Both the position numbers and the translations under genes were made by a program. A stretch of DNA of 63,990 nucleotides, counting the filler, from Basidiobolus ranarum (Eukaryota): the NCBI GenBank assembly GCA_040143965.1. It is 3 parts of 3 records of this genome, joined end to end, with 100 filler letters (N's around TTAATTAATTAA, not from the genome) between each part and the next. Parts side by side here need not be neighbours in the genome. Positions count along the whole stretch, not along the records: positions 1 to 23,347 come from JASJQH010007043.1; positions 23,448 to 46,779 come from JASJQH010007044.1; positions 46,880 to 63,990 come from JASJQH010007190.1. One strand, 5' to 3'. Position 1 is the first letter of the stretch. Each line of letters opens with the position of its first letter. Below the pieces are notes generated by a model, which did not search any database, was not told the origin of the DNA, and worked only from the letters and a program-made list of their open reading frames with translations. This document shows, piece after piece, positions 7,721-53,748 of this stretch.

Positions 7721-8609
7721 CTACGCTCTAATTAATACTATGAGCAACTCATGTTGATTATTACAAACAATAATGAAAGCCAAACCTTTCTAGTGCATCT
7801 ATAGCAACCAAGATGTCATGCTTGTTGCTACTTACGATGTTGCCATTAGCCATCATTTCGTTCAATATCAAGTGAACCTTATCTAAATGGATTACTAGGT
7901 AGATTCAAGTCAAGGAGACTTTAAGTAGTGGACCTAGTACAAGAAGAATTCAAAACGATAGAAAGGATATATCGAGCTCACGCTATAATTTGAATCCAAG
8001 AGAGTGGGAAAACAGATTCAGTGCTGTGATATTTGTTAAAATCCTCTACTTGTAACTATAAACTCACCACTTTATCGAAATAAACGTTCAAAATTTCTAT
8101 TTTGCCATAATAATTAGAATTTCAATGTGAAGAGTAGGTCAGGAGAAGCGGTACATACCTACCCAGTTTTGCACGAATTCTATTACTTCGAACTCATTCT
8201 AAATGAAATTGTTATTATATTTTTGGATGGTATATGCTATGCTCTCATTCTATATTTACATCTTCTGGTGATATTCCCAAGATAAAGAAAAGGGATGCGT
8301 ATCTCCGATATACTGGTAATGTGATGTTTAGCTCACCATTGAACAGTAAAAGAATTAATACATTAAGCTCTCCTTACCGAATTTATATTGTTCGTGAAAA
8401 ATAATCGAACACTAAACAATCAACACTATCAGCCTTTATCTACAAACAGATAGCAAAGTACTAACTTGACTCTCAGGCCGTGGTATTATTTTACGTGCTA
8501 ACTCGGCTTCGAATATAGAACGTTGTAAAGGAGACACACCAATTTCAGTAAAATACTTCGAAAACCGTGTTCTCCCTTGCTTATTGATAATTAGAATAAA
8601 GTGTATCAT
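7721..8609 (-). CDS. AP4S1: Adaptor protein complex sigma subunit, AP-4 sigma-like, about 8 exons including a 12-nt microexon and an AT-AC intron
   Basis: Spliced product: MIHFILIINKQGRTRFSKYF..RPESQ|CSIIFHEQYKF|VYRRYASLFFILGISPED|NEFEVIEFVQNWV|EILNVYFDKV|RELD|LVIHLDKVHLILNEMMANGNIVSSNK. NKQGxTR, QCS and LDKVHxILxEMxxNGxIV fit sigma4 best. The last tiny exon is uncertain. Confidence 0.85.
7899..7970 (-). other. U12-type AT-AC intron (72 nt)
   Basis: 5'ss ATATCCTTT, branch TCCTTGAC about 10 nt before the terminal AC. Removal joins RELD|LVIHLDKVH in frame. Confidence 0.9.
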
Positions 8610-9199
8610 AACTGAAGCCGATAAATTATGTCAGAATAGCCTTTAACTCTTTGAACCCTTTATAGATAACAATGATTAATTATATGCAAGATAGTATTAA
8701 CTACAATAATCTCTGTGATACATTTTGAGTGCTTTCTTGATTTTAAACGTACATACATAGTTTATGATTGGACAAATTGATTAGCGTTGGGGCAATAGGC
8801 TATGGGGTGAGGGCTACATTTCAAATACTGGCAAGAAGTATTTTTGGGCCCCACAGATTTGACTAGATAAATGTTGTTTAGGCCCAGTAGTTGTGAAGCC
8901 TATTTGAATTTGTAAACTCTTACTGGAATATAGGTATTTGTATATTATAAGTATTTTGAGAATTGGATATTTTCCCCAGTTGCTCAGGCTGTCAAGTTGA
9001 CTGATAAAATTATCCAAATATTTGCTGTATGAGGTTGGGGTTGGTAAATCGCTCAATATACTATAATAATCATCCCACGTTGCCGAGTCCTACAATACCC
9101 GAAAAAAAATTGGGAGGGGGAATGTACTATGAAATACTCTACCCCAACTTTCTTCCTCTTTAGACTCTGACTTGGCTTGTTGTTTCGTCCCACATCGTC

Positions 9200-10164
9200 A
9201 TGGTTTCTGCTCTTTCAACCAGAATTGCTTCGGCTCTTGCCAACCGCACTCCTATCACTGCTCCTTATGCTGTTTCTGCTTTCAGACAGCTCATTAACAC
9301 TACTTCTAACTCTAGTAACGATAATGTTTCCCAATCCAGCGACATTGGCTCGAAATCTACCCGTCGCTCCGATGGTCAAACCTTCTCTAAAACTCCCATT
9401 ACTGGTAAGTTTGTCTTGAAAGCGCACTTACGGAATTACTAGCTTAGAATCTCAAATATATAAGTTTCAAACTATTTTGTACTTATACCCCAGTTCAATC
9501 GTGTTATGTGGTTGATTTTTCTTGACATTAATAATCTAACGAAATTTATTTTTGTTTAGCACGTTTAAGCTTCAGCGAGCAACAACGCATGTATTCCACA
9601 TATTCTCGTAATTCCACTGTTGTCCCTGACTTCTCTGCTTACAAGAAAGAGAACACTGGCGAAGATGCTAGCCGTGCTTTCTCTTACTTCATGGTTGGAA
9701 CTACTGGTCTTGCAACTGCTGTAACCGCTAAAGCTACTGTGTACGACTTCCTTACCAATCTTAGTGCCTCCGCTGATGTTTTGGCTTTGGCAAAGGTTGA
9801 AGTTGACTTAGCCAATATTCCAGAGGGTAAGAATGTTGTTGTTAAGTGGCGTGGTAAGCCTGTTTTCATTCGTCACAGAACCGCCAGCGAAATCTCGGAA
9901 GCCAACTCTGTTAACGTTGCCGACTTGAGAGATCCTCAAACCGATGGTGAGCGTGTTAAGCAACCCGAATGGATGATTATGTTGGGTATCTGCACTCACT
10001 TGGGTTGTGTGCCTATTGGTGAGGCTGGTGATTATGGTGGTTGGTATTGTCCTTGCCATGGTTCTCACTACGATATTTCCGGCCGTATTAGAAAGGGACC
10101 TGCCCCTCTTAACCTCGAAATCCCCGAATACACAATTGAGGGTGATAGTCTCGTCATTGGTTAA
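9200..10164 (+). CDS. RIP1: Cytochrome bc1 Rieske Fe-S protein, 2 exons (intron ~9405-9559)
   Basis: CTHLGC and CPCHGS Rieske motifs, KWRGKPVFIRHRT, and a mitochondrial presequence in exon 1. Confidence 0.97.
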
Positions 10165-10945
10165 AGGAAATCTTCCTTTTCAATAATCCATTATATTTAA
10201 ATCACCTCACTTGTTAAAATGATTCTGTCACCAAACTCATCAATCTCTTTTCGCACTATTTGTTAGACCCAACTCTTCATTTTCTTTATGCATGTTCTTG
10301 AACGTAATTTGTAAGAATTGGAAACTTAACGAAAAGTATGTATTCATGACTTATCCCATCTTAAATAAACCAATTTCCGTCTGATTTACGTTAGCATAAC
10401 TCGCTCTGCTTGTCATTCCCTTTAGCTAGGGACAAGATGTTCATTAATTAGGCTAAAATTTGGAGCTTGCCAATCATGCAATTGTAACTATTGCGAATGT
10501 GACTAGTTAAGGTGGAACGTTGGAAACATGATTACTGTGGTGAAAAGTTGAGGCCAAGTAGTCTATTTTTTTGTCCTTATACAACTAACAGTATTCAGCG
10601 TGAATGTGAATATTTCGAATATAATGGCATTTACTACTAGCAATTTCTCATGCTATATAATGGTATCAAGGATAGCATGAATCTCGTCAGAACTTTTGTT
10701 ATGATTTCTCAATCTCGTAACTAATAAAATACCTATCCCACGAAGCACAACCGAGTTACAAGGTTATATAGGCATGGTTTTATTGATTTTAGTAAAACAT
10801 GAGGGATGCACTAATATTCTGTTCAAGATAACAGAACTAGCATGGCTTGATAGACTCAAAATTTAGATATTATAAGTGGTTGGAGAAGTGATCGAAGTGT
10901 TTTTGCGTAGTAGGAATTTATTCAAGTGCGAATGATATGAAGGGT

Positions 10946-11450
10946 TTAAGCAATGATGATGTTAGGGGCGACGTAACGCTTTGTATGGTACACTGATTTT
11001 CCAACTTCCCAGCCAGGAACATCCTTCATGATCTCTGCTTCACGCTCTACGGCAGCTCTTTGACGACGATAAGAATCACGATCATATTCAGCTTGAAGCA
11101 TAGGAAGTAAATGTAAACGAGCCCATATTTTTTCGCGTTTGAGTTCTCTATAAAGGTAGACAAAAACAACAAGATATTGTTTACGTTAATATCCAAGGGT
11201 TGAAGAAAAGTCGTTGAGAAAGGTATAAAGGTGAACGGGCAAAATGTATGTATTAATCCTAATATGGATGTATATCTACAAACCTTCTTTCTTTGATTCC
11301 TTCGAAAACTTGGTAAAAACTAAGTCCTGTGATCACAGCTAAACCGCCGAAAAGAGCCAAACCAGAGGGGCCTTTCTTAGGAAGGTGACGCTTATACCTA
11401 ACAGCAGGATAACCACCTTGAGGTGGGAGCTCTTGTGCATATGTAGTCAT
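10946..11450 (-). CDS. NDUFA13: Complex I subunit NDUFA13/GRIM-19, 2 exons
   Basis: QELPPQGGYPAVRYKRHLPKKGPSG; exon 2 ELKREKIWARLHLLPMLQAEYDRD..MKDVPGWEVGKSVYHTKRY. Confidence 0.93.
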
Positions 11451-12304
11451 AGCTAAAAATAGGATAGAAGCGAATACGGGGGGTTTCTATTCGTAAACAG
11501 CCAAACAAACCCTTGACTTCGATAGAAGCCATGTTTCTTGAAGCAACTCATCTGAAAATTTCCACGTGACCCCACACTGTCCCTTTGAACACCCCGCAAG
11601 CTGGACGAAAAATTGGATACCCCTTTTCCCCAAATCGACAATATGCATGTTGAATTGATAGACTAAGTATGATCATATGTTATGAAGAAAGTAAACTTTA
11701 TTTCTTGAAGAGAACGATTCATGAGGCAAAAGAATGGGATATTAAAAAATAGGAGAGATTTCTTTGCTACAGGATCGCTCAAACCCGATGGCCCGATTCG
11801 CTCTGACTGATACGCGTAGATGTAGGCGTTAATATGGACTTTAAAAGTACAATTAGTTAGAAGCAATTCCAAGCTAGAGCTATGTAAGTGGTTAGCGAGT
11901 GTGCATTTTAAATTCATCTATCTAATCTCGCTTAGTGGCCAATAAATGAGTTTACTGCGTCCATGGTGTACATATATTAGGAAATCATCTCCATTGATGC
12001 GACCTCAATATGACCATATTTTAGTGGTTCATCATGCAAAGGTAAAAGTCACCCAAGAGTCAAAATTTTCGTTGAAAATAAGAATAGTGGCTAGAAATCA
12101 ATCATTGGTTAAGTATGTGGGTTAAAGCGGGATGTGCATCCAATAACTGAAAGCTTAGGATAAATACAAGAAGAAAATTTTAAATCACCCCAGTAACAAA
12201 CACAAGTCACCTGATTTTAGTTGATTCAAATACAAAAAATTTCCACTGTAAAGGCAAGTTGCTCACTTCTTCTCAAGTCCAATTTTCCTTCATATTACTT
12301 CACA

Positions 12305-12691
12305 ATGAACGCTCTTGCTGGTCTCACTAGAACTGCTTTCCCTGCTTTGAACCTTGTTCGTGCCTACGGTACCAAGACCTGTTATGTTGGTAACATTCCC
12401 TGGGGAACCAGTGAAGAACAAATCCAAGATCTCTTCACCGAATTCGGAGAAGTTGAGAAGGTTCGTCTTCCTCTTGACGACGCTGGTCGCATCAAGGGTT
12501 TCGGATTCGTTGAATTAGATGAAACTGCTGCTGCCAAGGCCATTGACTCCCTTAACGGTTTCAGCTTCAACGGTCGTGAACTTCGTGTCAACGAGGCTCA
12601 AGAACGTGCCCCTAGAGCTCCCCGTTCCTTCGGCAGCGGTGGTCGTTCTTTCGGTGACCGCCCTAACTTCAACCGCAACCGCGACTTCTAA
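12305..12691 (+). CDS. Small single-RRM RNA-binding protein with a probable mitochondrial presequence, intronless
   Basis: RNP2 CYVGNI, RNP1 KGFGFVEL, LNG..GRELRVNEA. N-terminus MNALAGLTRTAFPALNLVRAY has no acidic residues. G/R/F-rich tail. Confidence 0.9.
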   Translation: MNALAGLTRTAFPALNLVRAYGTKTCYVGNIPWGTSEEQIQDLFTEFGEVEKVRLPLDDAGRIKGFGFVELDETAAAKAIDSLNGFSFNGRELRVNEAQERAPRAPRSFGSGGRSFGDRPNFNRNRDF

Positions 12692-13376
12692 ACATCTCAC
12701 TTTGTGATTTCTCAACAAATCTATAGATCATTTTGCATTTAAGCCATATCTTATTTGTATTGCATAGGACAACAACATCATTTGTACTGTAACTTTTTAT
12801 CTTGTTTTTTCTTAAAGAAATAATCTATTTACTCCGATTTCCATTACACCTATAAAGCTTATGTTATTTACCATGTCACAGTCTTCATTGTCTAAACAAT
12901 AAAAATGAGCAACCTATAGATGTGTAACTGCATTTTATTCTCAAAATCATTCCTTTCTGTTACTGTTTACTCTTTGTCAAATACTTCACCTAACGCCCTA
13001 TTGACAAGCGTTAAAGTCGAACTCCATCTCTATCAGAAATGGAGGGAAGGTCATGTAATGTCGACCATAAGATTCTTTTAACTGTTCTTATTGAGGATTC
13101 TTCACAAAGGGACATGGATGATACATTTTAGAAGAAAAATATTCTGTTGAACAGGGAAGGAGGCTTTTTTATTTATTTTTCTCGATACTTGATTTTCTCC
13201 GATGGGAAAAGCAAATGTGAAGATGAGGGGAGTGGAGGAGAGTAGATTTGTATTGATACAGTTGGTAATTCACGAAGTAGTAGTGTTGGTGGTTACGTCG
13301 TTAGTTAAGCCTTCTAATAAATCATAATGAATGTTGAGCTCAATGGAAAGATGATATTATTTGCAAATTATAAATA

Positions 13377-16190
13377 CTAACCGTTTGACTGTTCGTTAGG
13401 TGTATAAGGTGCCATAGGAGGTTGGTCCATAACAGAGCGTTGAGGAACCATCATTGGTGGCCCAGTGACGTGTGGCATCATTTCAGAAGGGTAACGAACC
13501 ATCATAGGTCCTTGAGGTCCAGGGTATGTATACATTTGTGGAGGCATGTTTGGAACCATGGGGCCTCTACCTTGTGGAGGGTAACCACCGGGTGGAGCAA
13601 AGTGTTGTCCTTCGGAGGGCGGGGCCTGCCCTTTTGGATACATTCTTGGGGCTGAGACTGGTGTCATTTGAGGACTATAAACGGCAGGAGGTGGGCCACC
13701 TGGATGTGGCATTGAGGCAGAAAATGGCATGTTGGGTACAAAGGGAGCTGGCGTCATGTATGGCATAGGAGGTTGTTGCATTCCCATGGCAGGCATACCT
13801 GGAAACTGAGCAGGATATCTATAAGCCACATAAGGCACGAACGCTTGATTCATACCGTTGTGACTATACATATCTTCCTCATACGTGGCTGTATGAGAGA
13901 ATTGGTGACGGAAGGATTTTTGTCCAAATGGCCAAGTAGGTGCAATTGTAGAAGGGTCCTCAGTTTCCATATCTGGTTTTTTTAACATTTCTTTGACCGA
14001 AGTGTGCCCTCTTTTCAAGTTTTTGTTGCCAAAGAAAGGTGACGAAGCTGCATTTGTAGAGGATTTTTTGTCGGAATTTTGGTATGAAGATGGTATAAAG
14101 GGCGCCGCGGTTGGATTGGGTTTAAACTCACTTGCTTTGACATTGAATTTGAAAGTGGAGCTAGGCTTGGCAGCTGGTGTCGAAGTGGTACCGGCGGAGG
14201 TTGGTTCAGCTGCCTTCTTGTCAGTTTTATCGCTAGGTTTGTCTTCACTGACAGTAGGAGGTTTCTGCTTACTCTCTTTCTCATCGGCAGTCTTGGAAAC
14301 TACAACTTGCTTAGGTGATTTTGGGATATCCTCCTGAGGTTCCGGGACACTCTCCTCGTCACTTTTAGAGTCGGTATCGGATTTCTTGGATTTATCTTTA
14401 CCAAGAATAGGGATAAGGTCAGCTGGCATTGGTGTCTTGAGTTTGAAACTTTGACTGAACTTGATTAATTCAGCCACTCTACCATCTTTTTCCATCTTCA
14501 AATAAGCCTGTCTTGTTTGTTGTAAACGTTCCTTCTCATGGTTTACAAAGTTACGGAAAGTTCCTACAATCTCAGCTTCGTTGGGTTTGGAACTATTGCT
14601 TTCATTAGAGGTTTTCTTTGAAGATTTGGATCCAAGAAGGCTGGCGATAGGTTCAGCGATTTTAGACGTTTGGCTATTGGATGTTTTGGCGCTACCAGTC
14701 GATGATGGCTTGGTAATATCCAATGTAGAATCTTTTGATGCAGTTTCCGATTGTTTGGGCTTACTCTTGGGTTCATTTTCAATGGCTACGTTTGATGGGT
14801 TTGGTTGCGCAATGGTTGCAGCAGAATCTGAGCCTTGGCTTTGATTAGCAGGGACTTTAGTACGCATCGCGGGAGGCGTATATTTTCCTTGTCTGTCACT
14901 GCTTCTTAAGCTACTGGTTCGAACAACGGAGCTATATTTATCCTCCTCATCTAATTGGCTATCATCGATGGATTGACCACGTTCTTCTGCAATATGAGGG
15001 TTTGCGGATGACATCTAGATAGGAAAAGTTAGATATTATTATCATAAAAGTGGAGGTTTACCCGCAGTGTACATACTCTAGCAATTTCGTTTGCAATTCT
15101 GATGGCTTGCTTCTCTCTTTCCTTATAATCAGCACTACTACGATCAAGTTTAGTGGTATAGATCTCTTCGTCAAAATCAGTTTGAAGACCGAAAAGATGT
15201 TCATTTGCTGCAAATTGATCCCATTGATTATCGGTTCCAGCTTCAAGTTCTGTAAGAGATGGAAAGAGTTAAGGCTTTTAATGTCTTTCCGTAGCAACAA
15301 ATAGGTGAGGATTTATGAATGTATGGTAAAAAGGATATTCTAAAGTTTGAAATTCGGTATGATCATCAGCATTCCATCTGTGCAATTCACGCTCTCTAAG
15401 TGAGCCAGTATGTCCACTAATAAGGGTATCAATTTTGAATGCTATTCAATGAAATGAATTAATTTTGGTTCATTTAGCTAGTAAGTTTTCATTATGCTCT
15501 TACTATCTTTTTCGGATCCCTTTTCGGATATGGAGAAATCTACACCAACTGCGTTCATTTCCACAAAGTCCTTCGCCAAGATGATAAGAGTAGGAATCAC
15601 TTCGTTGAGATTTTCGGTTTTCTCTTCGGTTTTGATAACACGCGCATACTTCAATACTACTCCTAATTCACCTTCCGTACAAGCTGCGTGAAACAAGCCC
15701 TCGTATTTAGCTCCACTTTTAACAACAACTTGGACGTTTAGACCCTATTTGTATAATAATAGATTGTTAGTTCGTGTTACAAAATACATAAAAGATAAAA
15801 AAAACTATAGATATATACGGTACCACTAAATGCATGAGAAGGTAAAGCATGCGATCGTGCATATGTTTAGCAAAAGAGTCATTCTTCACTTCGACAGAGT
15901 GAGTCATTGGTGAAGTAGTGGGTATGTGGGATTGAGGTGAGGAGTTTTGATGTGAACCCCAAGGCTTCGGACCTCCACCGCGAGGTAGAGTATTAGAGTA
16001 CTGACCCCATTTACCTCTTCCACCCCTAAGTATACAAGTTAGCTTGAGTTGACAATCTATGATCGTGATAAATAAATGATTGGTTGAACATGTCTACCAA
16101 GATTTGACTTGAATTTTACCTTTGGGAAGTTGGTTGAAAAGGAAAATCTTGTCTTCGAGTTTTCTGTTGTCTACCACTCACGGAGGACAT
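13377..16190 (-). CDS. PBP1: Ataxin-2 / Pbp1 (Lsm + LsmAD + PAM2 + P/M-rich tail), multi-exon
   Basis: HDRMLYLLMHLV|GLNVQVVVKSGAKYEGLFH (Lsm), WDQFAANEHLFG..FDEEIYTTKLDRS (LsmAD), NPHIAEERG, and PAM2-like FNVKASEFKPNPTAAPFIP. Confidence 0.93.
15252..15338 (-). other. U12-type AT-AC intron (87 nt) in PBP1
   Basis: 5'ss ATATCCTTT, branch CCTTAAC, terminal AC. AT-AC removal keeps the frame (FQTLE-ELEAGTDNQWDQF); the adjacent AG does not. Confidence 0.9.
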
Positions 16191-17126
16191 GTTTTAGTTG
16201 TTGAAATAAAAATGTGAAACAACAATACAAACAAAAGTTTTTTTAAAAAACAAAAAGCTACTGTTTCAATAGAAAAACCAGATACTCCTTAATATTATGT
16301 TACGATCAAGAAAACCAAACTGAATAAAGGATGGTTCGTAGTGTTAACTTATAAACGAAAGGTAGTATAAAAGACGTACAAAATAAAAGTCACTTCAACA
16401 AATATTCAACTCGAGAAAATAAAAACGTTGATATGAAGGACCGTAAAAGAAATATCGGATCTTGTTTAATCCGTGTACCGCTGCGTTGGCGAATTCGTTA
16501 TTTGCCTCAGGTTTAACCCTTAAAGGTATATGGTTTAGGTGAAATTAGAGTGGCACCTTTTAGAAAAATTGAATAAAGGAGGTTTGCCAAATCTGACCCT
16601 GTTTTTACACTATTTCTTGAGATAGGCATTGTACACGTCGCTCAACTTCGAGCCAATTTCTCGATCAATTTAACCAACCTATTTGCAAAATTATTGCATT
16701 CACGTCATTTGTAATTCAAAGTTTACTCTCCTTAAACCCTTTCAAAAAATAAACAAGTACTTCAATGATCTTGATTGGATAGAGTCCGTACTCGGACAGC
16801 AGAATTTCGGCACCATGGGAAATAAACAATCAGCTACGATAACAATTTATTAAAAGCCATGTGTGATTAAACAAATTACTAAAGGCTGTATTTACCATTC
16901 ATCTTTTACGCCCAACAGGCATGAATCTTTACAAAATTTAATATGTTTGTTATACGTTGATATACTAAAGGGAGGGGTTCCTACGTGATGGCTAGAGCAC
17001 CTTACAAGAGTATTTACTAAACTATCTTACTCAATTAAACACCAAGCGCGGTTTCTTTTAGATGGAAGTGCTCTAATCGGTAACTTGAAGCAGACTCTAG
17101 TGTTGTTTGGAATAACTATCAACATG

Positions 17127-19325
17127 TTACGAGTCGTGAGCCAATCCATTAGCACTGGCTAATCTCTCATCAGAGCGGCAGGCCTCAGCGAAGGAGCGAT
17201 TGATGTTCCAGAGTCTTACTGTGCGATCGTCAGAACAGGAGGCCAACTGATGTACATTTCAAAGATATTAGTTCAGGAAATACAAATTCTATTACTTGTG
17301 ATGATAACATTACATGCTCAATATCGTTGTTGGACCACGACACACTAGTAACTTCATTTTCATGTGCCTTTAATATCAGTGGAGCCTTTTTAGGGGAATC
17401 GACTTCCCATATATAAAGATTCTTATCACTGGATCCACTGACTAAAAATTTAGTATCTGGACTCAGTGCTATTTTAACATAGAAGGATGAGCATTTGTAT
17501 GTAGACGAGTTGAACGTTGCGATCGGGCTTCCGAGGCTAGTTGTAGAATACATGGATATCCTTCAAATACAGAAACCAAGGGATTAGATAAATAGGAATA
17601 TGAACGCTAGATTTGATTGCCACTATGTTGTGGACATATTATACTCACTGATTATTCGTGCTAGCGGCAAATATTCGATGACCCATAGGATCTAAGGCTA
17701 GTGAAGAGATCCCTATGGTAAAAATGAAATGTTAATAGAGCTGATGGCCAATAATACATATGAAAACACCAACCATGTGCTCTTTTTGTTGGGCCTTTAT
17801 GAAGTGACGTCGCAACAGGAGTAATATAGGGCTTCAAAGAATGAGATCCATGTTTTCGTGTATCCCATATTTTCACTAATCTAAATAGCGAACAGATTTT
17901 AGAATCCACAATGACCGTCCTACAAATGCTCAAATGGTGCTTACCCATCAGCTGCACCTGCAGAGCTCAGAAGTGATGGCGCGTGAGTTAGAAATTGAAC
18001 GGCGGTAACGCTGTGTGAGGTGTCATTCTAAATGAGGAAATTTAAGAAAGTCAGGTAAGTGGTGACTTGGCCGCCATTGTTTATCGAGTATTCATACCGT
18101 AAAGTTGGTTCCGACTTTCCTACGCTTCGGAGACGGTGGAACGAAATTCAAAGAGTGGGCATGCTTGATTATGTCAACGGGGCGATGTCTATACTCTATA
18201 AGTAATGTGCGGTTTGTGTTAAATCAAGTAATTTCATCCTTCTGAGTTGGCCAACTTACCACCACTATTTAAGAGAGAACCTGAGCATCGTGTATCCCAT
18301 ATCATAACATTTCCATCACGAGAAGCGGTCGCAAAAATATCTAATTATATCAACTATAAGTTGAATTTCGTTCTAGCATAGGGAGTATGTCAATAAGTAC
18401 TTACGATTGTCAAACGGGTTGATCGTTACCGATTTGACGCTACTGGTGTGTCCGTAAAAGTTACCAAGACACTTCCGTGTTTCCACATCCCAAAGACCAG
18501 CAGTTTGATCCCCTGAAACTGTGATCTAAACAACAAGTAAACAATACTGCTCCATTCAATTCCATAGATATATCTAGTTTACCACTCGCTTATCGTCGTG
18601 GGTCCACTGTACATCGAATACAGCATTATTGTGAGCATGCCAACTAATTCTGGTTCGTTCTGGGTGGTAGAATAGTAGAGTGAGTAATGGAGATACTGTA
18701 AGTGTAGGCGTTAAATGCAGAATTACCATTTTCGATGGAGTTATCAAAGGAGGTATCCAATATATTTACTCTTCCTTCCTCATCAGCTACCGCAAGAAGT
18801 CTCCCATTGGATTCAACTAAGGATAAAAAATCGTTAAGTCGAAGTTGTATATAGTTTCGAGGAGATATATTTCGATAACCTACTGTTGTTAAAAGTACAA
18901 CCAAAGGGTGGTGCTGCGGTATTGTTTTCTGACATGAATTTATATACATCTTTCTCTGTACTAACAAAATCTTTTATATAAAAGCGTTGCGAAACTATAT
19001 ATGTTCTTTTTAGTAAATTGAAAATAAAGGCTGGAAAGGTATTTCGGTTACCCTGTGGCGCTTGAGCGAAGGAATGGCCTTGTATTTGTCTATGAAATAA
19101 AGCAGAAACAGGGGGCATTGTGGATTCTCGTATAAACTTTGGTTTATAACACGTGTCTATTGTGGGTATTAATGAAAATGAGACTTGTGTGGAAGAAGAG
19201 TTGGAAGATAAACAAGAAGAAGTGCGTTTATTAGAAGAGCGAGAGAAAGTAAATGGAGTATTTAAGCATGAGTGCTGGGAAATTCTGGTTGGGTTGTTGG
19301 ATTTTCTTTTTCTCGGTAAAGACAT
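17127..19325 (-). CDS. CDT2: WD40 protein Cdt2/DTL (CRL4 substrate receptor), many exons
   Basis: PPFGCTF, LAVADEEGRV, WHAHNNAVFDVQW, TVSGDQTAGLWDVET, GHTSSVKS, ATASRDGNVMIWDTR, LLSSAGAADG, SSFYVK, SGSSDKNLYIW, ASCSDDRTVRLW. The start codon is uncertain. Confidence 0.88.
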
Positions 19326-19613
19326 CTCGAACGTATTATACCAAGGTGAACAAAGGCTCACCGTTTCTGTTTGTAAGATTATTTTTGTTGACTTTTTACC
19401 AACACGCGATTCAATACACACATAATTAGTTTGTTGATTGGTTTAAAAGAATATTTGAATGATATTCTTTTCTCAGGTTAATATTTTTAATCAATCGATA
19501 AATTTAATCCAATCAAACAGATTATTCTGACGGCTATTTCCTGAGTGTTTACTCAGGTAACAAGATATAGAAATATGAGTTATAAGTTCTGACAAACGAG
19601 ACCCAAGTAGTGT

Positions 19614-20173
19614 TCAACCTTGTAAGCCTGCTTCAAGGTAGTGAAATATGAGGAATCGATAGCCTTGGATCAACTGAGTGATTTCGTTAGTCAAATGACA
19701 AGCAAAGAGCAAGTAGTTCACTGGTCTGACTACTATCGCAAATCTCATGAAAAGAAGGGAGTAAAGACACAAAGCTACATAGTTTAATACACAGTGGAAA
19801 TAGACTTTAAGTGAAGTGTTACTTACCAACAGTCATCTTTCCAGATATTAGGTCTGGTGATTTTCCAATATCCACGATACCCGAAAGAGGGATGAGCCAG
19901 TTTGCTGCAGGCCCCCAGAAATGCTAATGAGAAAGCAAACTGTCAATCATACAATAGTAAAGTGAATTATTTTAACTTCTTACTGTGCTAGTTGAGGTAA
20001 ATCCAAAGTTAAAGGTTCAAAATAATCCATACGAGGAATGACAAATGCGTAAGTGGTAAATGGTTAATTAAATTGGAAAAGAATTTACAGGTTTCATACC
20101 TGCACAAGTAGTTTACGAACTCCCGACTTCGAACACGTTCTAGTAGAGTTGGTTCTTCAAATGGTCTGTTCAT
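19614..20173 (-). CDS. MPC1: Mitochondrial pyruvate carrier 1, 4 exons including a 4-nt microexon (19984-19987)
   Basis: [58 protein letters not shown]. Confidence 0.92.
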
Positions 20174-20450
20174 TAGGTTGATTAACAAGCTCAGGCCAGA
20201 AGGAGCATTCTACAATTGTTAATGAAATAGTTCTGATCAAATAAGTTCTTAGATGAGATTGCTTGCAGATCCTGATAATTGATATGATCGTAACTGCGAT
20301 CAATATTTCCTGAATATTAGTTGAGCTAACGAGGATTGAGAGTTTATTAAGTACTAGGACTACTAGATAAAGATAGGTCTATTGGGTGAATGGTGCTATG
20401 TGTGTGAGAAGGGAATGTGGAGGAGTGTATGGTTGGTACAATCAATCAAT

Positions 20451-21506
20451 CTATGCTTTTTCGGTCTCAGCCTTTCGTTCCTTCGAACGTAAATAATTGT
20501 ACCGGAGTAGTGCTTGAACATTGCTCTTGGTTGATAGTTCCTGTGCTACCCGCGTCCAATCATGGCCATATTTCTTGACTAGATTTAGTAACTGCTCACT
20601 TTCTTCGTCAGTCCAGCGACCTTTGGTAATTTTAGGATTTACATGTGCATCGTATCTTGCTTGTAGTTGAAATGGTGTTCTGCTAGGAATCGATTCAGAG
20701 ATTTTAGTCCAACTTCTACCATATTTTTGGCATCCCTTCAAGAGTAAATCATCTTCTTCCGGAGACCATTTATCACGACTCGTGTTGGGGTTGAGAAATT
20801 TATCGTAACGAAGTAAGGCGTGTCTACTCGATCTCCCAGGAATATCTTTGACAATCCTTTCCCAATCACGACCATATTTCTCTACGCCATCCAGTAGAGA
20901 AAGATCTTCTTCCTCTGTCCACCGACCTGTCTTCACGTCTGGCTTGAATCGAGACTGCCACCGAGAGTAGCAGCAAGCAGAAGAACGACCAAGAACTTCG
21001 GAAATAACCTTCCACTTGCCACGATATTGTTCCATTGAAGTTAGTGATCTCAGAGTTTCGTCTTCGTCAGCAGACCACGGTCCCTTTTTAAAGTTATTCG
21101 TCAAAGTCAAATGCATTTGATAGCAAGAATTCGGAGTTCTACCTGGAAATAGTGTCGAAGCAATGTGGCTCCAACGATTTCCAAACGTTTTTACCGCTGT
21201 CAATAATTTTTGACGATCCTCTTCTGTCCATTTGTATGAAATCCGTTTTCCTTTAGGCAACTTGTTCTTGGGAGTATATTCCCACGCCTCTTTCTCAATT
21301 TCGTTATCCTGCTTTTTTGCGACATTACCAGAACATCGTAGTTGAGATGTGAAGAATGTGGGTTTTAGAAAAGGGAATCTGACGCGCAATACACAATTTT
21401 CTACATGAATAACACAAATCCGACTAACTTAGTATTCAACTGAAGACCACAGCACAAATGATGTCTAACAAATAAACTTACGCGTCTGTGAGTAGAATTT
21501 CAACAT
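20451..21506 (-). CDS. Five-repeat Myb/SANT protein, copy 1 (intron 21401-21481), with a putative mitochondrial presequence
   Basis: Five W-x19-W repeats starting KWTEEDR, PWSADED, RWTEEED, KWSPEED and RWTDEES. A short ATG exon is conserved between the two copies. Confidence 0.9.
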
Positions 21507-22237: not shown

Positions 22238-23155
22238 TTACTTATTTTCTTCGTTAGTCCATCGACCTGTGCCAACTTTACAATTTAGCCGTGAATCATA
22301 TCTTTTTTGTAGTTGATATCGTGTTCTACCAGGAATCGATTCTGAGATCTTAGTCCAGCTTCTGCCGTATTTTTGATATCCCTTCAGCAGCAAGGCATCC
22401 TCTTCTGGGGTCCATTTACCATGATTGGTGTTAGGGTTAATATATTTATCGTAGCGAGTTAAAGCGTGCTTGCATGTTCTTCCGGGAATATCTTTAACAA
22501 TCTTTACCCAATCACGACCATACTTGTTTACACCTTTCAGAAGAGAAAGATCCTCCTCCTCTGTCCACCGACCTGTCCTCATGTTTGGTTTGAATCGAGA
22601 CTGCCATCGAACGTAGCAGCAAGAAGGGGAGCGATTTAGAGCTTCGGAAATAACCTTCCACCTGCCACGATATTGTTCCATTGACGTCAGTGATCGCAGA
22701 GTTTCGTCTTCGTCAGCAGACCACGGTCCCTTTTTAAAGTTATTTGTCAAAGTCAAATACATGTGATAACAAGATCTCTGAGTTCTATCTGGAAACAAAG
22801 TCGAAGCAATGTAACTCCAACGTGTTCCAAGTGTTTCCACAGCTGTCAATAGTTTTTGACGTTCCTCCTCCGTCCATTTTTGTGTAACCCTTTTCCCTTT
22901 AGGTAGCTGCTTCTTAGTTGTATATTTCAACATTTTTTCCTCTTTTATTACGGTATCATGGGTCTTCGCGACATTTCCAGAACATCTTAGTTGAGAGGTG
23001 AAGAAGGTGGACTTGAGAAAAGGGAATTTGAAACGGATTGCAAAGGGCTCTACATAAATAACACAGATTCGACTAACTTAGTATTTAACTGAAGACCACA
23101 GCACAAATGAAGGTGAAATAATAAACTTACGCGAGTGTAGGTAGAGTTTTAACAT
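22238..23155 (-). CDS. Myb protein copy 2, truncated to four repeats by a premature stop (possible pseudogene)
   Basis: Close paralogue of copy 1 with the same intron. TAA replaces CAG at 22238. The downstream in-frame remnant LLKLDNKYGHN*V*IGQEI*TKNNVQ..KERKAEFEKS* runs to ~22097. Confidence 0.85.
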
Positions 23156-23347: not shown

Positions 23348-23447
23348 NNNNNNNNNNNNNNNNNNNNNNNNNNNNNNNNNNNNNNNNNNNNTTAATTAAT
23401 TAANNNNNNNNNNNNNNNNNNNNNNNNNNNNNNNNNNNNNNNNNNNN
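23348..23447. other. Assembly gap (N run with an artificial TTAATTAATTAA spacer)
   Basis: 100-nt block of Ns with a central spacer carrying stops in all frames; the same structure occurs at 46780. Confidence 0.97.
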
Positions 23448-24335: not shown

Positions 24336-27142
24336 GTTTAGGCAATGCTAATTTTGACAGTATGCAATCTCACAAGCTGTTAGAGATATTATGATGATTC
24401 AAGCCCATTACAGTGCATGAATTTCCAGCTACAAGGGAAACCAAACATTGCCTCTGCAGCTCTGATTTTGAATTCAGACATTTTTTTCACCAACATTAGG
24501 TAAACTAACATAATATTCATTGGTAATATTGTTTCAAAAGATGCTTTTAATACATACAATAGTATTCTTGACAGAGCCAGTGAAAACTTGAAAGCAGATG
24601 TTGCTATGCAAGCAACAGGGTCCCAAACATCATTACAATGGCAACTAATCACCAAGTAAGAAAAATACTTGAAATGTGCTTGGCAAAGCCATTATGCATC
24701 TGAGTATCAGGAACTGCCCTCACAACATGGACCCAATCTTGAAGTTTTATTACCTTAGATAGTGTCATATGCTGCATATAGAATATTGGATCACAGATTC
24801 TAGAAATCACGTGGCAATGTTTGGCAATATCCAATACCCTCCAGCATGATTGGTTTAAATTATGTTTACTCCATTACTTTGAGCTAAGGTCTAATAAACT
24901 CTTGCCTGATGGAATAAGTCTGGTTTATAAAATAGAGGTTACCTGGGGCTTTTTATCCCTTTTCCCTTGGATTCAACATTACTAAGTGACATTTTGATCT
25001 TGACAAACATTGAGTTAAGATATATTTCTTGTTCCAAGCTGCTTGGGATATTCCATTGACAGCAAAATTTTCCATTCTGTTGCAGAATTTGGAGCCATAA
25101 TAGTGTCAATAGCGCTTGATGCAGCAGCTAGAAGTTGCCATAGTGATGTCGGTCATTGCTTTAGAATATATTTCTCGCTAGAATAAGAGCTCAAGTTATT
25201 GTAATATACTTTGCCAATAAGCACCAAATGCTAAGCATAATCAGAATAGTTAAATGAAATTACTCTAGTTCAATATTTGCACGAGACGCTGAGTCAGCTT
25301 AGTCATCATATATGAGCGATCGAGCGTAAACGAGTGGAGTCTCCCTATGATGGCAAAACGAAGATCCAAAAGCAGTTGGAAAGATAAATCACTTGCATCA
25401 GTGTTTTGCAATTAATTTTTCGCGTCAAATAGTTGTTCATTAGTGCACTACTTTTTTGAACCGACATTAGCGGAATAGTAAAAGCCAGTCAGTAGGCATT
25501 GGGCTAGATTTAGCTAGTAAAACTAATGCGCCGACAATACCTCTTTTAACATGCACATTTCGAATTCCAGCGTCTAGTTACCTATTATTGCACGAATATT
25601 TCGGTATTTCATACTTGCTTTTGACTTCCCAATCCAATAACCTTGAAGCTGTATTAACAGCATACACCCTGACACTCTTATAATGCATGCATGATCATCA
25701 AAATAGCTTAGAGTTTATTTAATTTAGTCGTTGACACCCACCGACATATTAATATAGAATTCCCCAGACAGGCCCGAATTGATTAGTACTATAAAAGCAG
25801 CCACACTTGATTGGTTGATGTTTCCACTTAGGGTCTCGGATACGAATGAGCTAGATTGGTGTGATATATAAGCAGTCTCTCAAACCCCACATGATCCGAG
25901 AGATGATTTGATTTAATCTTCGATTCAGCGCGCATAATATGGGGGTAGATTCGCCTGGTAAAGGTAGTAATGAGTCAGTGATCGCTTGTGCATCTATTGC
26001 ATTTAATACTGGTTGCGCCTATGTAGCTGAATTGGGTATATTCAAGCGAAAATCGATTAATGGTCTTGATCGAGTATATGAGACATTCTGATTGTCAACT
26101 GTAACCTGGGGCTATGACTAGGAAAAGATTCTCAGGATTGACCAAAGTAACTACATATCAAGTTTCAGATATTAACACCCAGAGGGCATATTTGTTTTGG
26201 TAAGCAGAGGCACCTGAAGCCAGAGTATAGGCTCTATGCCATACAGAGTGTTTTGTTTCTTCCCAGGTTGCAGCTTTAAGAGTGATCATGTGAAACCGAA
26301 CTATACAGTATCAAGAGAATTCAAATATGGGTGCTTTGTGTCATGTTAAACGAGATACGCTTTCGTATGTGGGTGAGTCGGGAGTCAATCGCACTCGATT
26401 CGTATCATGCGTATTCATTCAAACACTTTTTATCCGTATCTTTGTTAGAGACGTACAACGGCTTATGAAAAGCTAAATGTACATGCAGCATACTTTGTTC
26501 CGAGGTTCACCCCATCCGACCTCTCTTTCTTAGTAACTTTTCTGGTGATTATAAATGGCCTTTCCAGTGTGTGAATTTCCACCGGATAGAATTCCTGAAG
26601 CTTTGGAAGGTTCTTATGTTTCGAAATGATTCTAACCATTGTTTCTTGGATAGTCCGTTTTACAATCTACCAAACAGTCAATACTGGGTAATTTCCATTC
26701 TTAGACCATGCGGAGAGCAAAAGTGGAACTGTAATTGATCACAAACCTCACACTTGAGCCAATCTCTTAACCAGATCTGTGGCAATCATGCTTCGTATAC
26801 TGGCTGCTTATCCCTCCAATCACTCAGCTATCCGAGTTTAGTGTGGTATGCATGACAGAAGTAATATGAAGGTGATCACACGTGGTTTGTTTGGCTAAAT
26901 TATGGTGATCTAAGTATCACAGTTCACACAGCGTTACACTCCATTCTTTATCGAAAACATTGATATAACATTTACAGGATCTTGGCACCATTTTCCTTTT
27001 TTCTTCCTCACGCTCATAAAAGGTAAGAGAGGACAAGAAACCTCCAAGATCAAGGATAAATCTTCACACTATTTAATACCAGCGTCTTACTCACATTGTT
27101 CTCTTGCAGCGATAGTTCTTTATCTTTCCTTCACTATTTCTC

Positions 27143-29832
27143 ATGTTTAACTTTTCGTCCTTTTTATTATCTTCTGCTGTACTAATTTTGAGTGTATATA
27201 CTGATTACTCATTGGCCTATCCTAAATCCAGCAACTTTGCCTTGTCTAATGTCCTCAACTTGGTAGACAATGTCTCTAGTACTGATAGCAGTACTGCACA
27301 GCCTCTCACTTATTTTCATCAAAATTGGGAGGCCAAATATATTGTTATATCGTATTTGGTATCGGTATTGGGGGCTCAAACGGCCCTCGAATTAATCAAT
27401 CGTCGAACCGGATCCACTGGATTACACAACTGGCTTCTGCTAATAGGAGCTTCTTTAGCTATGGGCGGTGTAGGTATTTTCAGTATGCACTTTATTGGGA
27501 TGGTTGCCTTGAATCTTCATCACCCTTTTGAAAAAACCTCCAAAATGTATCCAATTGCTTATCAGTTCGGATTCACCTTTTTATCCATTTGCTCCAGTTG
27601 GATCGGTGTCGGTTTAGCATTTTATTTTGTTGGAACTTCAGAACGCGTAATTCCTTCTCGAATTGTAGCCAGTGGCCTTTTCGCTGCTGCTGGTATTTGT
27701 ACTATGCACTATATCGCTATTGTTTCGATGAATACTCACGTGGTGTACTCGCCTCTAATCGTCGCCGCTTCGGTTGCAATCGCCATCGTAGCAGCGTGTG
27801 CCTCTTTGTTCATTTTTTTCACACTACGCTCCAAGTGGAAGGCTGCATGGTGGAAACGAACCATTTGTGCTATGATTATGGCTGTGGCTGTGTGCGGGAT
27901 GCATTATACTGGTAAGTTAGCCTATCCCAATTATTCGTGTTTTCACTATCATTTCGATTTGCCATAGTATCTCAACAATATTCTCTCGGCGAACTATAAT
28001 TAGGAATGGCCGCTGTCAATTACAAAATACAAATGGATGATATGGGGCCCAGCATGGACAATCACTTACTAAAAGGGCCTTCTGTATCTACTAATCTCCT
28101 CGTCACTCTAGTGGCTTGTATTTCCAGCGTAGTCTGCGTCTTTCTTATAGCTTACTCCTATTTTCGCTATCGAGCACAGGCCCGTGAACTTTCAAAGCGT
28201 ACCAAAATAACCCTTGCTGTGTTCTATGTGGATGACGAGGGAGCGTTGTTGGTGAACAGTGATGGATTTGTTCCTACTGAAGAAATCGTCTCCGAGTACC
28301 AGTACCGCATCAATGAGTTCGAATTCCATGTGTCTCATTCTACATTCCTTTGGGCTTACCGAGCTATGAGGACGCTGTTTGTCAGCTCAGAGGGTAGTGT
28401 TATCAATCGAGTGCTCAATCTTGATGGCTTCACCGCGGAGTACGATACCATTATGTCGGAAAAATCAGGCAAAGAGTTTGAAGTGAATAGATTTGACGAG
28501 AGACGTAACGAGCACAATTTCCAAGTGAAATTCCTGAATAGTGTCAGTAGCCTCTCTAAAACTCTGAAGATATCCCCCACTGAACTAGGTATGTTATATG
28601 ATCGGCCTATTTACCCTGATACTCTCCATACCGTAACACGCTCAAGTGAATTGAGCAACGGTAGTGGTAGCGAAGGGGTTGTCCTTTGCGTGGTACGCCA
28701 CATTTCAAATGATAAGGTTCATCACGAAAGTCATTTCCCCAGTCTGAGTTATCGTTGGGTTCAGCCAAACCTCATTGCTGGTCGTCTGAGAAAGCAGACA
28801 GGAATCAATGCGAGTGAATTGGATCGAATGACCAAGGATATTAAACAATATATTCGACACACAGTTCACGAGCAATATCCAACACATAGTCATCATGCCT
28901 CTGTACTTGTTGTTCGAACTAGCTTAAGTGGATTTCAGATCTTGGTACCCAGTGATCGTCGTGCTACTATACCTACCGTGGATATACCAATCGGAATGAG
29001 TTACGAAAGTATCAATGAATTTTGTAAACAGTATTCGAATGCCGGTGCTATGATAGAAGAACACCAGCAGACCAGTATGCCAGGTTCGAAACCAGAATCG
29101 GATGCATTTATTAGTTCACTTCGCAACCTCTTTCCGGCGAATGATTACATAGGGCATCATCCGTATCTTGATAAAGTGATAATTCAAGAAACACCCTTCC
29201 AAATACCAACATCGTCCGAGCAACGTGCACGATTTTCATCCGATTCTACAATATCTTCGGAGCCTCGAAGTGGTGATTCTTCTGTGACGGTAACAGGCCA
29301 AATGCCTATATCATCTCTATGTTCCACCATCATATTTTATCACATTTTTAGTGCTACTGAAGTCATAGCCCAGCCACCAATAGGTTATGAGTTCATTGAT
29401 TTAAAACTCTTTGAGTTGATGAACGCGTTTTATGTATGGCCCGTAGAAGCTGTTGCCCATTTCTCACGACTGGTTGAACTAGAGTTCATATCGGCACTTT
29501 CCGGCAAACGTCGGTATAGTAGCATGGATAGTCAAGAAATTACTGCCATCACGCAATTCGAAACTGAACCAGATCTACTATTAAGGAACTCTGTATTCGA
29601 AGAAGAATCCGACAAATTTTCTACGTTAAACTCGTGGTTTTCACGTTTACCAAGTGTAAAGAGTGATACAAAGAATTCATATCCTCTCACTGATAAAACA
29701 CTGGTCAACATGCATGAGAGGTCGTGGAATACTAAGCGGTGGTTACCAAAATATCTTGTATCTTCAAACTCAACAAATGTGGACTCCAAACGTCCAGACT
29801 CCGCGACTTTCTCCATCACTGAAAGAGGCTGA
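27143..29832 (+). CDS. MHYT-domain membrane sensor protein with a long cytoplasmic C-terminal region (intron 27912-28003)
   Basis: Three MHYT-type repeats (SMHFIGM, TMHYIAI, GMHYT|GM), multiple TM helices and an N-terminal hydrophobic leader. A probable 5'UTR intron lies at ~27023-27109. Confidence 0.9.
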
Positions 29833-39345: not shown

Positions 39346-39539
39346 ATTGGCACATGTATGCTTTTATCAACCCTTAAATAGTCATATCGCTCCTCTTTTA
39401 TATAAATAAATGATCGCATCTTTTCAACGCCAATGAACTATATTTGTTTGAAGACTGAAATCTCTGATTTAATCTGAACTAGTTTGGTTTAAATTAGTGA
39501 AGTATTTATGCCATGTATGATTGTTCTCTAGACAATATA

Positions 39540-40508: not shown

Positions 40509-40529
40509 GATGATAATGAATTGATCGCT

Positions 40530-46744: not shown

Positions 46745-46779
46745 ATTATTCCTGATAATCCTAAAGGCTGGTACTTGAG

Positions 46780-46879
46780 NNNNNNNNNNNNNNNNNNNNN
46801 NNNNNNNNNNNNNNNNNNNNNNNTTAATTAATTAANNNNNNNNNNNNNNNNNNNNNNNNNNNNNNNNNNNNNNNNNNNN
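46780..46879. other. Assembly gap with an artificial spacer
   Basis: N run with a central TTAATTAATTAA. Confidence 0.97.
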
Positions 46880-46918
46880 TTTCTTTTCCTTCTTCTCTTT
46901 CATCTCCTTCTATTCCTT

Positions 46919-49395
<2,477 letters not shown>

Positions 49396-51520: not shown

Positions 51521-51856
51521 TAAAGAAAGGTACCTGCTCTCCAACAATTCAACCCGATTCAGTCCCCTCTCCCTCGTCCTACACTACTACTTCCAAGTCC
51601 ACTATTCCAACTCATGCCATACCGTTGATTAATTGGTGTGCACATGAATTTGGATAATGTACAAAAATTGAAATGAGATAAATTAATATTACCAAGTCTT
51701 GCCACTTCTTCAGGCATAAATTTATTTTGTCGCTTATTATTTAAAGGAAGTTTATGTTATGGGTTGTGCTGGGATATTAACAATACTTGAGAGGCACCAA
51801 AATGCGAATAATGAGGATGGATATATGACCTGCATAAAATAGACTAAATGTATCAA

Positions 51857-52632
51857 TTATTTAAAATACCATATCAGAGTACCAACTCCAATGATTAAGA
51901 CTATCACCGAGAAGATGGACATCAGTCGATTGTACGAACACCATCGTTGTTGAACTTTAGTACGTGGTCCTCTTGGAAGTATTGCACCAATCCACCAGCA
52001 TGGCATTAATAAAAATCCAAATAGGAATAGTAACGCTCCAAAGGGTATCAGTGAATGCAATGAGTTCGTTTTATCCAAGCTTTCTTCTGAACTATTGTAC
52101 TTTTCATTGTGTAAGTTTGTGGAATCTCTCCAAGTCGTTTCTTCCGTCGTCAAATAGTATTCTTTCGGTAAAGTGGGTCGTTTTATAGACGTTAAAGTAC
52201 GGTCGGCTGTGTTCATTGGTCTACTTATAGGTGTATCAGTGGTGCTTTTTAGAAAGTTAACTGCAATCTCATATTCGATAGAGCCCGGTCCATATTCAGG
52301 TTCTAATAGAGATATGGCCTTTACGTCAAAAGGGGATAATGTCGGATGGAAAGTGGAAATGAGAGTTTCAGTGGAGTTGGTACCAAACTTTTGCGAAAAA
52401 GAATGGCTCATTCCCGATAAAAAAAAACTTTTTGAGTCTCTCGACGTTGACTTAATTGTATGATGGCTGTAGGAAGCCGAGCTAAGGTAAGAAAAGATAA
52501 TTTCAAAAAGTATCAACTTGCTTACTTCACCCGTTGAAACAGGTTTGGAACTAAATGATGACCTGACCCTAAGATACCCGCTCTGGACGAAGTTAAAAAT
52601 TCATCGACTCGAAAAGCCCATCGATTGTACAT
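51857..52632 (-). CDS. Uncharacterised fungal protein with a C-terminal two-TM module (probable 44-nt intron 52482-52525)
   Basis: LLFLFGFLLMPCWWIGA..WCSYNRLMSIFSVIVLIIGVGTLIWYF. An upstream exon with an ATG splices in frame. Confidence 0.7.
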
Positions 52633-52921
52633 TGCTTTTCAATTCCTATTCTCGTCCTTCCATTTTGTGAAACATTGGACTTTAATTTTTGGTAACGAGC
52701 GGTATCACCGACTTAAAAGTAAATAGGGCTACTATTGAATTTCCGACTTGATGGGCCAATTTGTATTAAACCAGAGCAATGCTAAACTCATGCTAAATCA
52801 AATTCATATGCACCTTCAGATTGCTATGAGGTATCCAATCATCTAATGTTCTCATGTGATGCTGGAGTTGATATTGGATGCATTTTGAATTGACTTCCAT
52901 ACACACTATTGCTTACTAGTC

Positions 52922-53748
52922 ATGCCTACGTTAGAGAAGGACTTTCTTACTTTGAATCTTCGCTTACAGCATCTAGAAGAATGTGTGTTACGTACTTCAG
53001 ATAGCAAGAATGTTAAAGCTTTCGATTTAGAAACAGCTTTGGAAGAGAATCCTAGCTCTTTACTTACCAGAGTTGAGGAGTTAGAAGAGAAACTTAGAAA
53101 AGAGTTGAGTCAGAAAAAATACCTGGTAGACTTCTTACAAAAATGTAAATATACTAAGAAGGCCGTGTATACTTTTACTGTATTCGAACTAAACTTACTT
53201 TTTTTAGTTGAAAGTTTAAAAGATCTTTTGGAAGTCAACCAACTGGAACTAGAAAGAAATTTACTTACACCAGCTGCCAAAACTGAAATCATTTTAGGCT
53301 CGGAAAACGAATTAAGCAAACTTGCTAACACTCTAAGTGATATCGAAAGCCTTGAAAAATTCATCAACCCACCAGCCTTTCAAAGTACTGTAAACTTGAG
53401 GATGCTCTTGTTTGGAACTGTATTTATTGAACATTTTTTATCTTTCATAGACGTAAATCAGTTTGAACCTACTTTGAAAGCCCTTGGAAAAGTTCACATT
53501 GAACAGACTGAACTTATAGAACAGTTGAACTCACGAGTTACTAATATGCTAGACGTATACAACAATACCGTATCCTTTAACATTATATCTGGATATATTT
53601 ATTGAATTGAATCGAACTCGTATGAAAGTTTATATCCTTAATTTCTATCCAGGTTAATACTCTGTCAGAGATCTTCATCTCTTGGGATTCTTTACTCTCG
53701 GTACTTGAAGCTAAAGTAAGCTCTTTGGAGCGTATGAAAGCCATGTAA
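52922..53748 (+). CDS. DCTN3: Dynactin p24/p22 subunit (DCTN3), 4 exons
   Basis: LNLRLQHLEECV, AKTEIILGSE, HIEQTE..MLDVYNNT|VNTLSEIFISWDSLLSVLE, comparable to human [22 protein letters not shown]. Confidence 0.85.
53570..53652 (+). other. U12-type GT-AG intron (83 nt) in DCTN3
   Basis: 5'ss GTATCCTTT; branch TCCTTAAT about 10 nt before the AG; in-frame join. Confidence 0.88.

Follow-up and report, generated by a model that had tools for sequence, protein, structure and literature searches.

Three introns of the minor (U12) class interrupt genes in a 63,990-nt stretch of DNA from the fungus Basidiobolus ranarum (GenBank assembly GCA_040143965.1), which we refer to as the window. Two of them have AT-AC ends and lie in the genes for an AP-4 sigma subunit (AP4S1) and for PBP1/ataxin-2, and the third has GT-AG ends and lies in DCTN3 (dynactin subunit 3). 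We regard it as almost certain that these stretches are genuine U12-type introns and that a complete minor spliceosome, recognised in this genome as gene matches, removes them. The three are additions to a known class, and Basidiobolus has already been published as the fungal record holder for such introns.

All three introns begin with the donor RTATCCTTT and carry a CCTTRAY branch motif near the 3' end, and the two AT-AC introns and the single GT-AG intron were all present where a preliminary description of the window had placed them (Table 1). The AT-AC introns start with ATATCCTTT and the DCTN3 intron starts with GTATCCTTT. The branch motif ends 10 nt before the 3' end in the sigma intron (terminus AC), 16 nt before the 3' end in the PBP1 intron (terminus TAC) and 10 nt before the 3' end in the DCTN3 intron (terminus CAG). 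The same description had held that each intron must be removed to restore a conserved frame, and this proved right: the spliced form is open and conserved in all three genes, with the LsmAD domain (Pfam) of PBP1 continuing in frame, whereas the retained introns lead to a stop after amino acid 110 in the sigma protein, after amino acid 225 in PBP1 and within ~11 codons of the junction in DCTN3. No in-frame GT/GC-AG alternative was found within ±40 nt for PBP1 or for DCTN3. The window has 12 occurrences of RTATCCTT alone, where 6.1 are expected, and 1 of 100 shuffles reaches 12.

Table 1 Features of the window and the U6atac gene (positions along the window unless a contig is named)
Feature	Position	Strand	Details
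AP-4 sigma gene	7761..8609	-	exons 8466-8609, 8378-8411, 8260-8312, 8159-8198, 8068-8096, 7971-7982, then from 7898
U12-type AT-AC intron, AP-4 sigma (AP4S1)	7899..7970	-	72 nt, phase 0 after Asp104, preceded by a 12-nt micro-exon
Branch-point motif CCTTGAC, sigma intron	7909..7915	-	sequence motif
PBP1/ataxin-2 gene, part modelled	13380..16190	-	exons 16120-16190, 15824-16025, 15504-15744, 15339-15441, 15077-15251, 15014-about 13382
U12-type AT-AC intron, PBP1/ataxin-2	15252..15338	-	87 nt; phase 2, following residue 205 and shortly before the LsmAD match
Branch-point motif CCTTAAC, PBP1 intron	15268..15274	-	sequence motif
Linker, artificial	23348..23447	.	100 nt, between C7043 and C7044
Linker, artificial	46780..46879	.	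100 nt, between C7044 and C7190
DCTN3 gene	52922..53749	+	exons 52922-53144, 53208-53384, 53451-53569, 53653-53749 (stop inside the last)
U12-type GT-AG intron, DCTN3 (dynactin subunit 3)	53570..53652	+	83 nt, phase 0 after Thr173
Branch-point motif CCTTAAT, DCTN3 intron	53636..53642	+	sequence motif
U6atac gene, single	C89:21836-21969 (L002:1501-1634)		CC-like box GUCGA; TATA-like element at -29

Sigma exon 1 matches without differences a public B. ranarum protein named AP-4 complex subunit sigma-1, and the best PDB match of the sigma protein is AP-4 sigma-1 (E 1.9e-37 vs 1.9e-24 for AP-1 sigma). Human AP4S1 is gap-free over the intron junction, and the deposited model P0002 has the same junction, RELD/LVIH, as the model spliced here, while a second deposited isoform, P0001, is the intron-retained form. 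A further 3' intron in this gene is likely, because the end of the deposited model is unlike the read-through. PBP1 contains the SM-ATX and LsmAD families (Pfam). DCTN3 matches Dynactin_p22 (Pfam), one of its exons matches a B. ranarum protein, and its spliced model is the deposited P0036 with the junction NNT/VNT, at which P0037 of Basidiobolus meristosporus has the same residues. There is no gap near this junction in 148 of the 151 aligned rows (the query and all 150 listed matches), and the unspliced DCTN3 frame gave no meaningful match against PDB. The expectation that standard gene callers would mis-model these genes was checked for AP4S1 and DCTN3 and fails for both, the deposited P0002 and P0036 being exact.

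Splicing was checked with contigs from four runs of one study, which are ~97% alike to the window sequence and were aligned to its positions 1000-20900. We infer that these runs, whose type is not on record, are RNA of a close relative, because canonical introns are skipped throughout. In all four runs a joint from 15250 to 15338 skips 87 letters in PBP1, with one ambiguous letter; thus the PBP1 AT-AC intron is exactly removed in the spliced contigs of the relative. Another joint of this gene lies near 13302, beyond the modelled exons. The junctions sought by the preliminary description are therefore borne out by contigs for PBP1, while AP4S1 and DCTN3 agree with deposited protein models only.

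The genome encodes the minor small nuclear RNAs (snRNAs), since U11, U12, U4atac and U6atac, the search for which had been proposed, were each found once. U11 scored 84.6 bits (Rfam cut-off 39) and U6atac 66.3 bits (cut-off 33), and the four models gave no match in 14 control genomes. The four genes have in common an upstream WCCCAYA at -62 to -67 (background ~0.5% per 20-nt span), which is a candidate snRNA promoter element of B. ranarum. On the protein side, family matches above the cut-off were obtained for the 25K ubiquitin-like domain, the SCNM1 zinc finger and a 48K-type zinc finger (PF18036, PF15803, PF05253); against PDB chains the SCNM1 match is clear (E 3.9e-10) and the 25K match is weak (E 0.011). 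U12 carries GUAAGGAUA at L001:1516-1528, where the Rfam consensus has GUAAGGAAA. The base preceding T-CCTTRAY, in the 78 of 110 genome-wide candidates (see below) that have this T, is A in 34 and T in 27 (p ~0.05 vs intron background); a co-change of the U12 variant and the base upstream of the branch site is suggestive only.

For a genome-wide census we used strict patterns of donor, branch site and acceptor in short introns, in which the branch motif was followed by 7-16 nt plus AC for AT-AC introns and by 7-20 nt plus YAG for GT-AG introns, so that the two patterns are not symmetrical. The genome gave 68 AT-AC matches against 4 in controls and 45 GT-AG matches against 1. Since the controls gave so few, a strict match should rarely be due to chance. 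After merging into distinct donors, 66 AT-AC and 44 GT-AG candidates remained, and all 110 were re-extracted. This number is a lower bound, being a count of strict patterns rather than one based on annotation. Most of the candidates give a stop-free translation across the junction, and several host genes are presumably conserved ones such as RPB5, HUB1, NF-YB and VAC14. Longer introns (spacer 66-96) gave 32 matches vs 15 in controls and, being too noisy, were not counted. Net of controls, AT-AC introns make up 62 of 105 (59%). Of the conserved minor introns of animals and of plants, 21.8% and 25.3%, respectively, are AT-AC (supplement Table S1 of PMC10639083). Should a count based on annotation agree, a share of about 60% vs 22-25% would bear on the rates at which AT-AC introns turn into GT-AG introns in different lineages.

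Some candidates lie in pairs 360-1430 nt apart, apparently two per gene (L016/L017 and L126; L021/L022; L031/L050; L056/L111), and several recur in duplicated genes, both copies of which have kept the intron. Separately, L102:132-202 (C7261) is a probable AT-AC intron with a non-consensus donor that has A at +6; its gene resembles a paralogue of the L021 gene, whose matching intron has a canonical donor, and the two form a possible natural test of tolerance at +6.

The single U6atac gene differs from the consensus in the box that recognises the donor. Aligned on the AGC triad, the box is GUCGA instead of AAGGA, so that positions 12, 13 and 14 are G, U and C and not the A, A and G of the consensus. 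Against the canonical donor this U6atac pairs at +4, +5, +8 (G-U) and +9 and makes no pair at +6 or +7. A similar box was described as the "CC variant", [GU]CCGA, in U6atac of placozoan, cnidarian, sponge, amoebozoan, moss and oomycete origin, and was called hard to explain (Davila Lopez et al. 2008, PMC2396436). The B. ranarum sequence is one base off this motif, which in its strict form it lacks; it has the C at human position 14 and the downstream CUCG (C37). Since the box differs by one base from the common CC form and is accompanied by the CUCG tail, an assembly error is unlikely. With up to two mismatches allowed, the U6atac core has one match in the genome and none in the control, and a second copy of the canonical AAGGA type was not found in the assembly, which is fragmented. 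The pairing of U6atac with the 5' end of U4atac is predicted at -28 kcal/mol, with 10 of 500 shuffles equally good. The donors remain canonical and have not followed the changed box: when +6 was left free, 35 of 66 rows had C and 5 had G (hand tally).

What might hold the box in place is suggested by folding predictions: in the whole RNA, GUCGAG pairs with CUCGAU in six pairs (z -1.74; 11 of 200 shuffles; not significant), while the first 50 nt alone show no internal helix (z 0.55). This internal helix in free U6atac is a hypothesis of the folding model. The alignment of PMC2396436 contains, by hand count of its 31 sequences, 10 CC boxes, 20 AAGGA, 1 AUGGA and no GUCGA, and C37 occurs in 9 of the 10 CC sequences vs 1 of the 21 others (hand count; Fisher p 5e-6, the lineages not being independent); such covariation of the box with position 37 is equally explicable by shared ancestry. 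All five fungi of that alignment (Mucor, Rhizopus, Phycomyces, Batrachochytrium and Spizellomyces) have AAGGA. A metagenome scan returned 14 U6atac loci, all with an AAAG box; its search pattern was near the animal core, making it uninformative on fungi. Taking these observations together, we propose tentatively, as a reading more apt to fail than to hold, that B. ranarum has many minor introns, most of them AT-AC, alongside a CC-like GUCGA U6atac unable to pair at +6/+7, the first seen in fungi, and that the box is constrained by the CUCGAU helix and not by the intron.

In the minor spliceosome as described, donor and branch site are bound jointly by the U11/U12 di-snRNP, in which U11 base-pairs with RTATCCTTT at +4 to +9 while U12 base-pairs with TCCTTRAC; the 48K protein reads the first three intron bases, and U6atac, brought by U4atac, then replaces U11 (PMC3584512). 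In B. ranarum, recognition would likewise begin with U11/U12 on the donor and branch site jointly and with 48K on the first three bases, after which U6atac delivered by U4atac would displace U11 at the donor. Since this U6atac pairs only at +4, +5, +8 (G-U) and +9, it would be U11 and proteins, acting at the U11 step, that hold the invariant +6 and +7, and not U6atac, which here may need pairing at +4/+5 only.

Several points weigh against the view that these are introns of a working minor spliceosome. The single U12 and U4atac genes, both full-length, score slightly below the Rfam cut-off of 53 (49.4 bits, E 2.9e-7 and 46.6 bits, E 2.1e-5, respectively), the predicted 3' pairing of U12 with U6atac is weak (-12.4, 39 of 500 shuffles equally good), and the exon with the zf-U11-48K match is ambiguous, being nearer to GTSF1 (E 6e-8) than to 48K (E 3e-5). 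The contigs that support the PBP1 joint come from runs not recorded as RNA, of a single study and of a relative ~97% alike, the sigma joint is not among the 15 of 47 joints listed, and DCTN3 lies beyond the aligned stretch. For the sigma intron there are two in-frame GT-AG alternatives, although both remove conserved residues, and ATXN2 has no entry in the two vertebrate supplements searched, those of PMC6717393 and PMC11347168. The positional match with vertebrate introns considered below is one of three-base codon context, not of aligned gene structures. If the motifs were chance matches and the genes were spliced at nearby GT-AG sites, the sigma alternatives and the small background of the strict patterns (4 and 1 control matches) would fit; but the PBP1 joint is exact in the spliced contigs of the relative, the deposited AP4S1 and DCTN3 models have identical junctions, homologues are gap-free over both of these, and PBP1 and DCTN3 offer no alternative sites, so that this explanation is largely refuted and its probability is close to nil. 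Alternatively, introns with U12-like ends might be removed by the major or a hybrid spliceosome, the minor snRNAs being decayed or bypassed and the odd U6atac box a sign of decay. The two sub-threshold scores and the missing pairs at +6/+7 would fit this, and for lineages other than animals a hybrid spliceosome has been brought up as a possibility (PMC11347168). We consider it very unlikely, however, because the minor snRNAs retain their functional motifs, have a common upstream element and covary among themselves, the altered box agrees with the known CC type and not with random drift, and more than 100 introns have strict donors and branch sites, 60% of them with AT-AC ends.

Given that the three stretches are minor introns, their occurrence together could mean a real local cluster, or a genome with a minor intron in about one gene in seven. 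The preliminary description had spoken of three U12 introns within 46 kb, but this is not a genomic distance: the window consists of the contigs C7043, C7044 and C7190, each whole, linked by 100-nt spacers of N and stop codons (23347+100+23332+100+17111 = 63990), and we infer from the numbering, which runs in decreasing size, and from the sum of the lengths that contigs were packed by size when the window was assembled. The AP-4 sigma and PBP1 introns, in different genes, both lie on the 23-kb C7043 with 7.3 kb between them, which would suit a cluster, while the DCTN3 intron lies on another contig, C7190. The strict genome-wide rate predicts 0.11-0.18 matches per 64 kb (contig sizes interpolated) and thus a p of only 2e-4 to 9e-4 for at least three in one 64-kb window. 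Over the genome, however, 0.2-0.4 such windows are expected, the chance of at least one among 450-1000 windows is 18-33%, and the strict count is ~110 in 65 Mb; a true cluster or so high a density is distinctly unlikely. That the window has three of them is a fluctuation in the upper tail, and they represent a sample, rich by chance, of the well over 100 present genome-wide. The suggestion of an unusually U12-rich fungus, drawn from three introns in about 22 genes, was accordingly right as to richness, with at least ~105 net strict candidates, but unsupported as to the density from which it was derived, which reflects chance fluctuation and an artificial join.

The changed box could also mean that the variant U6atac serves a second intron class with a matching donor (ATATCGA), which a mobile element may have spread, and that the canonical introns depend on another U6atac. 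In favour of this, four of the five rows with G at +6 start with ATATCGATT, followed by a perfect branch motif. Those four, however, belong to a dispersed repeat of 330-370 nt that reaches ~120 nt past both supposed intron ends; outside it there is 1 row with G at +6 and 23 with a full canonical donor (hand tally), and only one U6atac core exists at two or fewer mismatches, although the fragmented assembly may hide a copy. We hold this explanation to be extremely improbable. The idea that the donor-like start and perfect branch motif (15 of 66 rows, hand tally) mark introners was rejected for the same extension past both ends and for the occurrence of the repeat in both orientations. The repeat itself (L086-L100) is AT-rich, with copies 70-89% alike and often in both orientations at one locus; it is MITE-like, and its perfect U12 branch motif is there by chance.

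Other features of the window were noted in passing. In the aligned contigs, joints with non-canonical ends occur at 9291-9727, 9881-9949 and 11149-11371 in highly covered genes and are probably paralogous transcripts or assembly chimeras. An open frame at 27116-27967 (+) contains two MHYT repeats, a bacterial signalling domain, which was possibly acquired horizontally, and two tandem multi-repeat Myb genes lie at 20451-21428 and 22238-23077 (-). With its sigma gene, Basidiobolus may be one more fungal lineage retaining AP-4; the AP-4 name is already on the deposited record. An earlier survey found a complete AP-4 only in Rhizophagus, a partial one in two chytrids and none in the sampled Entomophthoromycotina (Barlow et al. 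2014, PMC4022609).

In vertebrates, DCTN3 (human, mouse) and ap4s1 (zebrafish) are listed as minor-intron genes that respond to inhibition of the minor spliceosome (supplements of PMC6717393 and PMC11347168). The minor-intron donor is ACT followed by GTATCCTTT in human and mouse DCTN3 and GAT followed by GTATCCTTT in mouse Ap4s1 (PMC6717393 supplement), and in B. ranarum it is ACC followed by G in DCTN3 and GAT followed by A in AP4S1, in phase 0 after Thr and Asp as in vertebrates. The RTATCCTTT donor, the phase and the codon context are thus common to both, but the AP4S1 intron is GT-AG and 7,653 nt long in mouse and AT-AC and 72 nt long in B. ranarum. Judged by these codon contexts, at least the AP4S1 and DCTN3 introns appear to be old and common with animals, and the AP4S1 intron appears to have changed subtype; of the comparison with animal orthologues that had been proposed, these two match and PBP1 is without an ATXN2 counterpart in those supplements. 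A literature search returned no relevant match on U12 introns of AP4S1 or ataxin-2, on minor introns of these two and DCTN3 taken together, or on AP-4 in Basidiobolus.

The closest known system is B. meristosporus, with 249 minor introns (0.554%), the highest density in fungi, against 205 (0.272%) in Rhizophagus irregularis and none in Dikarya (Larue and Roy 2023, PMC10639083); a second count gave 237 (0.5%) and a low-confidence U4atac (Olthof et al. 2024, PMC11347168). The two Basidiobolus species agree in the intron class, in an snRNA set with low-scoring U12 and U4atac (PMC11347168 supplement S7) and in the DCTN3 junction residues, and differ in that the number for B. ranarum is a strict-pattern lower bound. 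The AT-AC share and the U6atac box of B. meristosporus were not found in the parts of PMC10639083 and PMC11347168 covered here, nor was any minor-intron literature found on B. ranarum. What the three introns contribute is a second species of Basidiobolus and, in AP4S1, a single difference of subtype at an old site. Rhizophagus irregularis and Phycomyces, which belong to other lineages, likewise diverged early among fungi and possess a minor spliceosome that is full or nearly so. Expressed sequence tags of Phycomyces blakesleeanus gave 8-9 AT-AC and 8-12 GT-AG minor introns, a near-even split and an earlier hint that AT-AC introns may make up much of the fungal set (PMC2846911); Phycomyces has, however, far fewer introns and an AAGGA-type U6atac.

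With the CC variant the B. ranarum U6atac has in common C at human G14, G at position 12, the CUCG tail, a single copy per genome and canonical donors that pair poorly, and it differs in having GUCGA where the CC type has [GU]CCGA. The 2008 paper was the only literature on the variant that we found, and a CC-like U6atac from a fungus was not found, although Rfam, a published figure (Fig. 9E of PMC10639083, for example) or the supplement of a preprint may contain one that has passed without comment. The CC type has been a puzzle since then, since donor pairing is held to be required in mammals and yet several lineages have a non-pairing box. The GUCGA box bears on which U6atac type was ancestral. 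Should the tentative reading above be true, fungi, like animals and plants, would hold both types, the CC type would be the favoured candidate for the ancestral form, AAGGA would have evolved repeatedly to match the donor, and U13 would repair the C-A mismatch that other CC types have in the predicted helix. B. ranarum, which is culturable and has more than 100 short strict minor introns together with a one-base version of the CC box, offers a compact system in which to study how +6 and +7 are read.

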